The notes: generated by a model from the sequence alone, not told the origin. DNA of 64,000 bases from an uncultured Candidatus Saccharibacteria bacterium (GCA_964527185.1 CAZGOI010000001.1:6010-70009), one strand, 5' to 3'. Numbered from the stretch's first letter, positions 1,248 through 22,448 are shown. A program made the numbers and translations.

Positions 1248-2177
1248 TCATCTTTCTATTAAAACCTTCTTGAGTTTATATCCATTGCAATGAGAAATAA
1301 TTCCAAGATATGATTGTAGAGTTTCATTTGATAATTTTCTTCTCGCTTTTTTTAGTATTCTTCTCTTTGTATTAGTACGCAATACTTTATAATGAGGTAA
1401 AATAATGTACCCTAAAAAGTCAATTCCTTGTGTCACTTTTCTAATTTCTACTTTTCGTGGATGAAGAGGTAGATTTAGTCTTTCTTTCAGAAACAAAGAT
1501 ATATCTACAATAAGAGATTCGAGATATCTTTTATCATGAGATATAACTACAAAGTCATCAGCGTACCGTATGTAGTATTTTGCTTTTAATCTATGTTTCA
1601 TGTGCTGATCAAATTCATTGAGGTAGATATTTGAAAAGAGCTGACTAGTAACATTCCCAAGTGGTAATCCTTTACCTCTAGATTTTTCAAAGCTTTGAAT
1701 GATATTTTTTATAAGCCATTTGGTATTCTCGTCTATATAATTTTTAAAAAGTATATTTTGTAGTAAGGAGTGATCTATCGAGTCAAAAAATTTTGAAATA
1801 TCGCATTTGAGAACCCATGTAGGTCTAGTATAATTTTTACTCTCTTTTCTTATAAAATCTTCAAGTCTTTGTACTCCTTTATGAGTACCCTTACCAACTC
1901 TACATGAATACGAATCATGAATAAATGATTTATCATATACATGGTAAAGAACTCTATATATTACTTGGTGGACAACCCTATCTCTAACTTGTGACTTATG
2001 GATATGTCGGCGCTTTGGATCGTAGACATAGAATGATATATATGGCTGATTTGTATATGTTTTGTTGACTAATTCATTATGTAGTGAGAAAATATTTGAT
2101 TCTAAATTAAATTCAAATTTTTGAATATCTTTCTTTTTAGTTTTACCCTTCCTGAATTCTCGCCATGCTCCGAGCAA
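1248..2177 (-). CDS. Diversity-generating retroelement (DGR) reverse transcriptase, bRT-like
   Basis: The 309-aa protein has an RT palm with YADD (RYADDFVV). Its motif 4 reads LPLGNVTSQLFSNIYL, i.e. the DGR-specific [ILV]GxxxSQ in place of the group II QG motif. The N-terminus (AWREFRKGK) and C-terminus (GIDFLGYIILPHYKVLR) parallel Bordetella phage bRT. There is no maturase or endonuclease domain. A cognate TR/VR pair lies adjacent. Confidence 0.9.
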   Translation of the reverse strand: MLGAWREFRKGKTKKKDIQKFEFNLESNIFSLHNELVNKTYTNQPYISFYVYDPKRRHIHKSQVRDRVVHQVIYRVLYHVYDKSFIHDSYSCRVGKGTHKGVQRLEDFIRKESKNYTRPTWVLKCDISKFFDSIDHSLLQNILFKNYIDENTKWLIKNIIQSFEKSRGKGLPLGNVTSQLFSNIYLNEFDQHMKHRLKAKYYIRYADDFVVISHDKRYLESLIVDISLFLKERLNLPLHPRKVEIRKVTQGIDFLGYIILPHYKVLRTNTKRRILKKARRKLSNETLQSYLGIISHCNGYKLKKVLIER

Positions 2178-2304
2178 ATTTGAAAGAGATGTGATAGTAT
2201 GAAAAATATCACTATGAGTACCCCCCCCCCGACAAACTATTGAGCTTCCTATTATCGGTCATATAAAAAGAGTATACAAAATTATCTACACAATCGGAAC
2301 AGCA

Positions 2305-2592
2305 ATGCCGAAACACCACAAGCTTGGTATTCATAAAACAATAGAAGAAAAATGTCTCGCAATTCTATCGCTCTCGATCGACTGTGCATTGCGACCGAAA
2401 CAAGAAAAATCACATCTTGTAGCAACTTTACGCATAGAAATAGAGACACTAAAGCATCTCATTCGTATGGAAAACGAATTAGGAATTATTAAAGAAAAGA
2501 CATATCTCACTATTGCCGGTTTATTACAAGACATATCTATGATGGCAACCGGCTGGCATAAATCACTTCAAACACAAAAGCCCCTGCTCTAA
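2305..2592 (+). CDS. Avd-like four-helix-bundle accessory protein (23S rRNA IVS-protein family), short or truncated; opposite strand to the RT
   Basis: The C-terminal half (ATLRIEIETLKHLIRMENELGIIKEKTYLTIAGLLQDISMM) follows the IVP/Avd pattern A.GSL.EL.yhL.l...LGYI...Y..L....vs.ML.gL. It lies between the RT and the TR. It is only 95 aa, whereas Avd is usually about 110-130 aa. Confidence 0.45.
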   Translation: MPKHHKLGIHKTIEEKCLAILSLSIDCALRPKQEKSHLVATLRIEIETLKHLIRMENELGIIKEKTYLTIAGLLQDISMMATGWHKSLQTQKPLL

Positions 2593-2606
2593 GCAAGGGC
2601 TTTGCG

Positions 2607-2726
2607 AGAAACTTCTGACGAAGACCATAATCCGCATTACGGTTGTCACGATTGTCGTAGCTCACGTTGAACTGACCATTAGTGTTCCGGTTCATGTTCA
2701 TGGCGTTGCTATTAGAATCAAGAGCT
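2607..2726 (-). repeat. DGR template repeat (TR)
   Basis: The 110-nt core 2617..2726 aligns without gaps to 2974..3083. All 16 mismatches fall at T on the plus strand here, which is A on the minus (coding) strand. In the target frame the TR encodes AAC/AAT/GAC at the positions that vary in the VR. Confidence 0.85.
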
Positions 2727-2914
2727 TATCTGTATATAACCATCTACTCACCGTGTGTCGTATACACGATACACTGTGTTACACAGCTTGAGCTGGCTTT
2801 GTTTGAAATAATATATCTCCAGTTATACACAGGCAGTTTCTAAATAGTGGCAAACTATCATCTTTTTACAGACTAGCTTTATAGCCAAACTTAGTATATA
2901 TAAAAAAGTACACT

Positions 2915-2944
2915 TCACAAAATTTCGCAAAGTGTACAAGATAA
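2915..2944 (-). other. Inverted repeat/hairpin immediately 3' of the VR and stop codon: possible terminator and/or DGR homing-associated hairpin
   Basis: gtacactt-N14-aagtgtac forms an 8-bp perfect stem 16 nt downstream of the target stop codon, followed on the minus strand by a T-rich run. Confidence 0.4.
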
Positions 2945-2959
2945 AAAAAAATAAAAGGA

Positions 2960-3709
2960 TTAGAAACGAACTTGACGAAGACCATAACCCGCATTACGGG
3001 AGCCACGATTGCCGTAGCTCACGCCGAACTGACCAAGAGTGTTCCGGCACATGCTCATGGCGTCGCTATCAGAATCAAGAGCTGCAAAACGGGTTAAGCC
3101 TTTTACATCATACATCTTGCCGGTTTCAGTACGCTCACGGAATGCAGCAATCATGCCTTCAATCGGAATCATGAAAGTAATACTTTCTGCAATACCATCA
3201 TCGTAGCTTTTATTCAGCATGTCTGGCTCAAGCCCACCGATGTGGGCTATAACGCGGTCACCTGCTGGGCGATTTTGTTGCTCTTTTATAGCCTGGTCAA
3301 TGCTCTGCCATGCTTTCCAAACTGAATCCTTACCAAATTTTTTAGCATACGCTTCAAATACCTGATTGCAGGTAATATCTGCGAAAATGTATTCGATGCG
3401 TTTAAATGCATCGACTTTTTCTGGTAGGGTTACCTTTGTCCAGTCAATTGTACGGCCGAAGAATTTCTTGTAAAAAACTTCAATGCGTTTCTTCTCTTCA
3501 GTCCATTGGTTGGCTTTAATCCCGAAAATTTCTTCACAGAACTTTTCGGTCAACTTCTCAATTTCATGTTCAGGACTCAATACCAAGTGATTGGCATCTT
3601 CAAAAGAAAGTTTTCTGCTATCTCCAAGGATACGGGTAACAGTTCCAGCGATTTTGAAACCCACTGCGGACAGCTGTCCGTAACCGGCAGGGTTGAATTG
3701 ATTTGTCAT
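2960..3709 (-). CDS. DGR target (variable) protein, C-type-lectin/FGE-like fold predicted from the VR-encoded C-terminal motif
   Basis: A 249-aa ORF with the VR at its C-terminus. The terminal …GYGLRQVRF resembles the canonical …GFRxV end of CLec-fold DGR targets. No signal peptide is visible. Confidence 0.8.
   Translation of the reverse strand: MTNQFNPAGYGQLSAVGFKIAGTVTRILGDSRKLSFEDANHLVLSPEHEIEKLTEKFCEEIFGIKANQWTEEKKRIEVFYKKFFGRTIDWTKVTLPEKVDAFKRIEYIFADITCNQVFEAYAKKFGKDSVWKAWQSIDQAIKEQQNRPAGDRVIAHIGGLEPDMLNKSYDDGIAESITFMIPIEGMIAAFRERTETGKMYDVKGLTRFAALDSDSDAMSMCRNTLGQFGVSYGNRGSRNAGYGLRQVRF
2962..3083 (-). repeat. DGR variable repeat (VR) at the 3' end of the target gene
   Basis: Near-identical to the TR. 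It differs only at positions that are adenines in the TR, and it encodes the last ~40 aa of the target (…ALDSDSDAMSMCRNTLGQFGVSYGNRGSRNAGYGLRQVRF*). Confidence 0.85.
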
Positions 3710-18540: not shown

Positions 18541-18656
18541 TTTGTTCTGGCGACGGCCTACTTTTGCCTAAAAGACTATCATCGGCGTAGATGGGCTTAA
18601 CTTCCGAGTTCGGAATGTGATCGGGTGTGACCCCATTACCAAATCACCAGAACAAA
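18541..18656 (-). rRNA. rrf: 5S ribosomal RNA
   Basis: Reverse complement TTGTTCTGGTGA…GTCACACCCGATCACATTCCGAACTCGGAAGTTAAGCCCATCTACGCCGATGATAGT…TCGCCAGAACAA. This matches the conserved 5S loop C/helix IV sequence, and the terminal stem pairs. Confidence 0.85.
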
Positions 18657-18782
18657 ATATTCAAATATCAGATACACTCGTCCCGAGTAAACTCGAGGGA
18701 TGATATCTGAAAACTGAATGCTAGAACCCGCCTTCGTTAAAACGAATTCGGGCGAACGCAAAAATATGATTTTCTGATTTCC

Positions 18783-22213
<3,431 letters not shown>

Positions 22214-22448
22214 CCTATTAGGAAATCTGAAAACCATCCCGACTCCGTAAAACGGAGGGGGACGACATTTTGCAAAATAGGAACCGCTTCCAAATTTTTG
22301 CACCATGTCTTAAATCATTGCGTTCTGTCTGCAACCCGATAAAAGACCCTAAAAAAATTTAGGATAACAGTGGGTCGCAACAGCATTCAGTTTTCAAATA
22401 TCATGTCGCCCTTCGAATCTCTCAGGACTAGATGTCTCAATAAAAAAA

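Follow-up and report, generated by a model that had tools for sequence, protein, structure and literature searches.

A probable chromosomal diversity-generating retroelement of the Patescibacteria with a G/C homopolymer in the overlapping 5′ regions of its reverse transcriptase and avd genes

Layout of the locus

The window analyzed here is a stretch of 64,000 nucleotides (64 kb) from an uncultured Candidatus Saccharibacteria bacterium (GCA_964527185.1, CAZGOI010000001.1:6010-70009). Between positions 1248 and 3709, counted from its first letter, it contains a cassette that is very probably a chromosomal diversity-generating retroelement (DGR) of the Patescibacteria 'B3' type. DGRs are reverse-transcriptase systems that alter the tip of a single protein at positions templated by adenine, and they are already known to be abundant in Patescibacteria. 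The cassette comprises the following genes and repeats:

1248–2258, minus strand: DGR reverse transcriptase (RT); frame open from 2258, stop codon at 1248–1250
2239–2592, plus strand: avd (accessory variability determinant), on the strand opposite the RT and target genes; Pfam bAvd, NCBIfam DivGenRetAVD
2616–2726, minus strand: template repeat (TR), with 34 adenines, 14 of them substituted in the variable repeat
2960–3709, minus strand: target (variable protein) gene, 249 aa, with the variable repeat at its 3′ end
2973–3083, minus strand: variable repeat (VR), covering the last ~37 target codons and ending 11 nt before the stop codon

Along the minus strand, target-VR comes first, followed by TR, avd (inverted, on the plus strand) and RT. 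An earlier note, made from the sequence alone, had described a complete DGR with the order target-VR, TR, RT. Each component was tested here and the description was borne out, including that order, but the note had overlooked avd between TR and RT. The TR is non-coding and lies near the RT: 246 nt separate it from the VR upstream, and 358 nt from the RT frame downstream. Since TR and VR are direct repeats, inversion of avd and TR as a simple block was ruled out.

The assignment to the DGRs is based on the type of the RT, TR/VR differences confined to adenines, a VR within a coding target, the presence of Avd and a C-type-lectin fold in the target, all of which were found. With avd on the reverse strand and flanked by TR and RT, the cassette has the B3 architecture, TR-(avd)-RT, as defined by Wu et al. 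2018 (PMC5758913), where it makes up 90% of the DGR set from the candidate phyla radiation (CPR).

Template and variable repeats

On re-alignment, TR and VR form an ungapped direct repeat of 111 nt with an offset of 357, the sole repeat of its kind in the window. The repeat that had been reported as 110 nt with 16 mismatches is hence real, but its length and mismatch count are corrected to 111 nt and 14, the mismatches being located at 2631, 2643, 2644, 2646, 2655, 2667, 2668, 2679, 2680, 2691, 2692, 2697, 2707 and 2713 (plus strand). All 14 are a T on the plus strand of the 2616–2726 copy, i.e. an A on the minus strand, in agreement with the claim that every mismatch falls on a TR adenine; given 34 adenines in 111 nt, the probability of 14 out of 14 by chance is 6.6e-9. 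The adenines are replaced by G in nine cases, by T in three and by C in two. In the target frame (ORF 2960–3709) all mismatches lie at codon position 1 or 2, and they alter ten codons, seven AAY (Asn) and three GAY (Asp), so that the proposed diversification of Asn and Asp codons holds; the TR and VR peptides quoted in support of it are exact on re-translation. Of the two copies, the one within the ORF is the VR, and the A-rich one outside is the TR.

Related loci were drawn from genome and metagenome collections. The same cassette is present in 17 distinct loci in unrelated genomic contexts, and the named homologues are all Nomurabacteria, Paceibacteria or Patescibacteria. In 15 related loci with a TR/VR pair, 12–22 mismatches are at A and 0–10 elsewhere (≤5 in all but one). 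The TR/VR homology stops at the same ...CGTCA in every locus, after which the flanks diverge (VR AGTTCGTTTCTAA, TR GAAGTTTCT), and in the window a hairpin of terminator-like appearance lies 36 nt past the VR. Two target variants of 252 aa, P0041 and P0329 (the latter the target of locus L011), are identical save for 15 VR residues, and all 15 of these lie at TR codons containing adenine. Judging by the two protein sequences, a sister element appears to have been active in nature recently.

For about half of the target homologues, no DGR core lies in the vicinity, and none is present at the loci of the homologues P0036, P0029, P0011 and P0024. At the P0041 locus (a contig of ENA ERZ1426853) a release-factor gene takes the place of TR-avd-RT, 100 nt downstream of the target; P0041 and P0329 may represent a remote and a DGR-adjacent copy, respectively, or a rearranged strain. 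Loci L147–L150 and L122–L125 share synteny (SMC-like ATPase, target homologue, ..., S11 peptidase), and in one of the two lineages two unannotated ORFs (209 and 53 aa) stand in place of the TR-avd-RT core. A HicA/HicB-like toxin–antitoxin pair is found directly downstream of the DGR RT in another locus (L002:7531–7959), the cassette of which adjoins rpsL-rpsG-fusA, a context wholly unlike that of the window.

Reverse transcriptase and target protein

Among PDB chains, the best match of the RT is bRT, the enzyme of the Bordetella phage DGR (8ub7_A, 160 bits, E = 9e-46, residues 3–306), far ahead of the best group II intron RT (74 bits, E = 1.4e-19), of RTs named Drt2 or Drt3a (≤40 bits, 4e-9 or weaker) and of RTs named as retron (≤27 bits, 3e-5 or weaker). 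These sequence matches support a placement of the protein with the DGR RTs as a bRT-like enzyme, which is what the earlier note had proposed. The motifs on which it had relied, LGNVTSQ and YADD, are present and aligned with the bRT motifs, LGNVTSQ being opposite IGSLTSQ of bRT, and with RVT_1 as the only Pfam match the reported lack of a maturase or endonuclease domain stands as well. NCBIfam gave no DGR-RT match; the nearest models, for group II, Drt and retron RTs, were all far below their cut-offs and are uninformative. PADLOC returned generic RT matches only, and none for the target or avd. The 324 codons of the RT contain no internal stops and keep all catalytic motifs.

The conserved N-terminus of the RT (GGGTHSDIFHTITSLSNLL) starts at about 2229. 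A start at the annotated TTG 2177 would drop conserved residues aligned with bRT 5–20, and the frame upstream of this codon contains no ATG, GTG or TTG. The conserved N-terminus is missing from the annotation of about 12–18% of the RT homologues, ~15 among the 120 best (54–73% identity); ~64 of these 120 have GGG or longer near the N-terminus. In all, RT homologues number roughly 7,700.

The C-terminal domain of the target, which carries the VR, has an FGE/C-type-lectin fold matching known DGR targets, as anticipated from the sequence; this fold tolerates adenine-directed variation. The N-terminal part forms a four-helix region (about aa 10–84) without a match. At the level of sequence, the target has no match in Pfam, NCBIfam or PDB. 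No lipoprotein or secretion signal and no signal peptide were found, and the protein is probably cytoplasmic. There are 62 close homologues of ~248 aa, all named ones from Patescibacteria, and a profile search with the target returned 415 cluster representatives at 50% identity. In the alignment of the family the body is conserved, and the hypervariability of the C-terminus falls exactly on the TR Asn/Asp positions.

Start of the Avd protein

The Avd accessory protein is found in most DGRs. The annotated avd ORF of the window encodes 95 aa from ATG 2305 to 2592, in a frame that is open from 2218. With Pfam bAvd (cut-off 40), this form scores 36.7 bits, and the form with a 22-codon extension scores 44.1 bits over profile positions 6–106; the match to NCBIfam DivGenRetAVD (2.6e-10) is below its cut-off. 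The 22 codons upstream of ATG 2305, beginning at ATT 2239, are conserved and show normal coding periodicity, the entropy being 0.91 at the third, 0.50 at the first and 0.32 at the second codon position. In one related locus (L016), the position of the 'internal Met' is occupied by TTA. Because of this TTA and of the periodicity of the extension, ATG 2305 was ruled out as the sole start, and full-length Avd is predicted to be translated from upstream of it. Only four of the 17 loci, those with a frame offset of 0 (see below), offer full-length Avd a canonical start ahead of its conserved N-terminus, and in addition L016 and L020 have a TTG at the third codon of the conserved N-terminus. The first conserved codon (Ile, window 2239) is invariantly ATT or ATC in the 17 loci, and the residues upstream of it vary. 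At the other end of the gene, the avd stop codon is overlapped by the terminator hairpin of the TR RNA on the other strand.

A separate RNA for the template repeat

The sequence elements on both sides of the TR point to its synthesis as an RNA of its own: it appears to be made as a transcript of ~316 nt, from about 2886 to 2571 on the minus strand. The elements are:

2908–2937, minus strand: terminator-like hairpin and T-run of the target gene, 22 nt past the target stop; the stem covaries in relatives
2893–2920, minus strand: promoter-like site for the TR RNA (TTGTGA, 16-nt spacer, TATACT), its promoter function being inferred
2727–2886, minus strand: structured 5′ leader of the TR RNA, with stem-loop P1, AGAAACU at 2835–2841 and the 12-bp stem P2
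2607–2613, minus strand: invariant AGUUUCU directly 3′ of the TR, predicted to pair with AGAAACU at 2835–2841
2571–2603, minus strand: terminator-like hairpin of the TR RNA, followed by UUUUGUGUU; the stem covaries in relatives

The region from the target stop codon to avd was aligned for 16 loci, and RNAalifold was applied to 15 of them. All 16 have the same order of hairpin and T-run, −10 box, leader, TR, invariant CGUCAGAAGUUUCU, and covarying hairpin with UUUUGUGUU, and the −10 box of the promoter-like site is itself conserved. RNAalifold predicted a 5′ stem-loop, the 12-bp stem (P2) around two hairpins, and a 7-bp helix across the TR flanks. In the helices outside the TR, 96.5% of the cells are paired, with compensatory changes in 30 of 50 pairs; this was equalled by 0 of 500 shuffles, and no slid register came close. 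The RNA of the window alone has the family-consensus structure at its minimum free energy (z = −4.15). The 7-bp AGAAACU/AGUUUCU helix would close the template into a loop. Rfam has no match in the DGR region (gathering threshold for the whole window; E ≤ 1 over 2150–3000).

Parts of this RNA also occur away from a complete cassette. In L010 (4703–5037) a target homologue is followed by a full TR RNA, with leader, TR and terminator, and by the last 20 avd codons; its TR differs from its VR by 19 A-mismatches, and the following 3.6 kb contain neither RT nor avd. Here either a deletion has removed the DGR core, or an RT acts from elsewhere. L034 has a similar arrangement, and L012 and L035 have the leader motif alone. 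Eight independent assemblies (L130–L137) with the identical target homologue P0036 all end ~102–123 nt past its stop, close to the expected beginning of the TR-RNA promoter and leader, which suggests an assembly-breaking repeat or heterogeneous sequence.

A G/C homopolymer in the overlap of RT and avd

The RT and avd frames are both open and conserved, yet neither has an in-frame ATG, GTG or TTG upstream of its conserved N-terminus in the sequence as assembled. Their 5′ regions overlap, and the overlap contains a homopolymer flanked by two ATG codons:

2214–2216, plus strand: ATG upstream of the C-run (avd strand), antisense of an RT His codon; ORF of 9 codons as assembled (MSTPPPTNY)
2221–2230, both strands: C10/G10 homopolymer in the overlapping 5′ regions of avd (plus) and RT (minus)
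2260–2262, minus strand: conserved ATG upstream of the RT, antisense of an avd His codon; ORF of 16 codons as assembled

The homopolymer is the only G/C run of ≥7 in the window, where ~0.01 runs of ≥10 are expected from the base composition, and in 280 kb of related loci every G/C run of ≥8 is located at the RT/avd junction. In the RT frame it encodes Gly-Gly-Gly directly ahead of the HSD... residues, which are aligned with bRT from residue 5 onward; relative to avd it is positioned 8 nt upstream of the conserved coding region.

The symmetrical arrangement of each ATG with an antisense His codon is present in all 17 loci, and at any run length the two ATGs are therefore either in frame together or out of frame together. 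In an in silico frame check of the window with run lengths of 8–12, both conserved ATGs are in frame with avd and RT only at a run length of 9 or 12. G9 or G12 yields a 337-aa RT (MTDNRKLNSLSGGGTHSD...) and a 125-aa Avd (MSTPPRQTIELP...); G10, as assembled, leaves the ORFs of 16 and 9 codons listed above. The run lies inside the RT coding region in every one of the 17 loci, with a length of G7 in one, G9 in eight, G10 in six and G11 in one, and it is interrupted in one. The ATG/His frame offset is 0 in four loci, +1 in 11 (window included) and +2 in two. A conserved offset across the run, as for programmed frameshifting or slippage, was hence not found in the 17 loci, +1 being predominant only. 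Three loci, again including the window, have no canonical RT start. A general occurrence of the run in all RT relatives was ruled out, since relatives in viral contigs (≤53% identity) are mostly without it. Leaderless RT and avd mRNAs, for which −10-like hexamers 8 nt upstream of both ATGs would speak, were given little weight, as this spacing is lost in the distant relatives L155 and L156.

A sister strain (locus L029) has been assembled from seven samples, and four of the assemblies (L122–L125) are comparable across both flanks of the run. They show zero mismatches in 3498 nt upstream of the run, and L122, L123 and L124 also show zero mismatches in 1242 nt downstream. The run is G9 in L123 and L124, with both genes in frame, G10 in L122, and G11 in L125, which has four mismatches immediately downstream of it. 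The three other contigs of the sister strain degrade or end at the run. This G9/G10/G11 pattern could be that of a hypermutable tract, and it is likewise what poor sequencing of poly-G could produce.

Proposed mechanism and evaluation of alternatives

In the mechanism that we propose, the TR would be transcribed alone, from the promoter just past the target terminator to the terminator that it has in common with the convergent avd. The structured leader and the 7-bp helix joining the TR flanks would present the template to an RT–Avd complex, which would make adenine-mutagenized cDNA. Replacement of the VR by this cDNA would diversify about 10–17 Asn/Asp codons on the ligand-binding face of the target.

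Slippage at the G/C run may further gate the expression of the RT, and possibly of full-length Avd, a tentative reading to which we give close to an even chance. The hypermutable run would lie within the ~50-nt RT/avd overlap, in which each start codon is antisense to a His codon of the other gene, and slipped-strand changes from G9 to G10 to G11 would turn the hypermutation machine ON and OFF. At G10, as assembled, both conserved ATGs would be out of frame and the element OFF or expressed at a very low level; at G9 both would be in frame. On this basis the copy in the window is probably in a low or OFF state. That a large clade of Patescibacteria DGRs carries such a built-in contingency switch, one homopolymer setting the frame of both genes, is more doubtful, although possible. 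As for the role of the run, we think of DNA-level phase variation first, of recoding at the level of RNA or ribosome second, and of no role third.

A number of observations weigh against this picture or parts of it. A GC-rich initiation of mutagenic homology (IMH) sequence is not evident at the 3′ ends of VR and TR, the VR of the window strain is known from one sequence, the protein clusters having a single member each, and the 7-bp closing helix is invariant, so that there is no covariation to prove its pairing, which we only infer. As RT and full-length avd have no canonical in-frame start as assembled, with G10/C10 at 2221–2230, the element could be inactive, which is a caveat to its earlier description as active-looking. 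Illumina sequencing handles poly-G poorly, and the differences in run length within the sister strain are perhaps partly technical. Most of the 11 loci with a +1 offset have an in-frame ATG, TTG or GTG for the RT just upstream of the run, and therefore a conserved ATG that is out of frame does not necessarily imply an OFF state. As proof that the RT is ON, such upstream TTG or ATG codons were discounted, since an open, AT-rich frame of ~25 codons would be expected to contain some by chance. For avd, the start in L155 and L156 is a TTG two codons inside the conserved N-terminus, with no read-through of the run, and the ATT/ATC Ile codon (window 2239) could serve as a near-cognate start; because of these two points, Avd may not depend on the run at all.

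The last observations would fit a run without any switching role, one that merely encodes Gly3 in the RT while both genes are expressed at a low, constant level from non-canonical or nearby starts, with ATA at about 2243 (RT) and ATT at 2239 (avd) as candidates. We consider this unlikely. In its favor are the invariance of the Ile codon that opens the conserved avd region next to variable upstream residues, the TTG start two codons further in among the distant relatives, and L028, which encodes the Gly-Gly-Gly of the RT by mixed codons. However, a pure run of 9–11 G in a genome of 41% GC, kept in 16 of 17 loci, is unnecessary for Gly3, its length differs between otherwise identical assemblies, and the RT frame of the window is without any ATG, GTG or TTG upstream of the conserved N-terminus.

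The run might instead be a recoding site, at which +1 ribosomal frameshifting (CCC-C/GGG-G) or transcriptional slippage would yield little full-length Avd and RT. An identical +1 shift would bring both genes into frame in 11 of 17 loci, a substitution between L036 and L037 alters the run length with the offset kept, and L011 is out of frame, yet the diversification of its target is very recent. tRNA-Pro is prone to +1 slips at CCC-C, and for the variant with transcriptional slippage, the run is as long as the RNA–DNA hybrid. Nevertheless this explanation is rather improbable: the offset is not universal, with four loci in frame and two in need of another shift, there is no conserved stimulatory stop codon or Shine–Dalgarno sequence near the run, and the run length differs between assemblies already at the level of DNA.

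Similarly improbable is an intact, constitutively competent DGR in which the run is really 9 nt long and G10 results from a homopolymer miscall. G9 would restore an ATG-initiated RT (337 aa) and Avd (125 aa), and the sister contigs that degrade or end at the run are typical of trouble with the sequencing of poly-G; but G10 is present both in the NCBI genome and in the Logan assembly of SRR12313479, which possibly derive from the same reads, and the conserved ATGs are out of frame in 13 of the 17 independent related loci, far too many for errors.

Finally, a decaying relic, with an RT inactivated by frameshift and VR differences that record past activity only, is very unlikely even if neither RT nor full-length avd has a canonical start, many target homologues are without a nearby DGR, so that loss of the cassette is common, and L010 retains a TR after loss of RT and avd, as neither the RT (324 codons) nor avd is interrupted by a stop, all catalytic motifs are kept, the RNA elements are all intact and fold like the family consensus, and the sole 'lesion', the +1 in the run itself, is conserved and variable.

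To our knowledge, the way in which cells restrain DGR mutagenesis is poorly understood. If the proposed gating is true, a mutable homopolymer on the RT, and perhaps on Avd, would constitute a stochastic ON/OFF switch on top of targeted hypermutation.

Genomic neighborhood

The genes flanking the cassette are housekeeping genes, as noted before, and comprise an ABC exporter, an Asp/Glu racemase and an M24 peptidase. The GC content of the RT region (1200–2250) is 29–34%, compared with 40–47% in the ABC-transporter and housekeeping flanks, and because it is below that of the flanks, it is consistent with a horizontal acquisition of the cassette.

Elsewhere in the window, the 23S rRNA gene (18545–22220, minus strand) has 3440 nt against a model of 2925 positions, with ~500 nt of extra sequence in which no real-looking ORF of ≥90 aa was found. 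It is followed by a 5S gene, and there is no 16S gene within the 64 kb. An enlarged 23S gene and a 16S gene apart from 23S and 5S are features often reported for Patescibacteria.

Comparison with known systems

Compared with the DGRs described from CPR genomes, the element is identical in order and orientation to the B3 type, without any architectural difference, and its target has no recognizable sequence domain, like the 'UVR' classes of the same survey (PMC5758913). The DGR itself is hence another member of a known and common kind and of modest interest, the locus adding a target family of roughly 400 clusters to a class that is abundant in Patescibacteria. The structured leader and the homopolymer at the gene starts are without mention in the CPR B3 literature searched. 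More generally, no description of a separate TR RNA with a structured leader was found in the literature searched, and nothing relevant on a DGR with a homopolymer, poly-G, phase variation or frameshift; an earlier mention of either (Paul et al. 2017) is possible.

The DGR of the Bordetella phage BPP-1 (mtd-VR, avd, TR, brt) is phage-borne, whereas that of the window is chromosomal. In the latter, avd is inverted and divergent from the RT, a GC-rich IMH is not evident, the target is small and without a signal peptide, and a G/C homopolymer lies in the 5′ overlap of RT and avd. While the TR of BPP-1 is part of an avd-TR-brt RNA, that of the window is apparently a short separate transcript with promoter, ~160-nt structured leader and terminator. 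With its pairing flanks, this RNA is analogous to the avd-TR-Sp RNA of the Bordetella phage, although much more compact. At ~316 nt it would provide a second, very different DGR RNA for comparison with that of Bordetella, and it is potentially useful as a small natural scaffold for engineered DGR mutagenesis. The target shares its fold with the CLec/FGE-fold DGR proteins TvpA (2y3c), TaqVP (5vf4) and Mtd (1yu0), at 9–15% identity, but differs from them in the unmatched N-terminal four-helix region and the lack of a lipoprotein or secretion signal.

The closest likeness to the run at 2221–2230 is found in the poly-G contingency loci of Campylobacter, Neisseria and Helicobacter. The G10 is a homopolymer of ~8 or more in a 5′ coding region where it sets the frame, as in a contingency locus, and the two have in common a run of 9–11 G at the 5′ coding end in an AT-rich genome and a reading frame that is set by the run. 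A length that differs between strains or otherwise identical assemblies may be a further likeness, although the differences are perhaps partly technical. In contrast to these loci, the run of the window lies not on a surface or restriction–modification gene but on a mutagenesis machine, and in two divergent overlapping genes at once, for which switching is proposed here.

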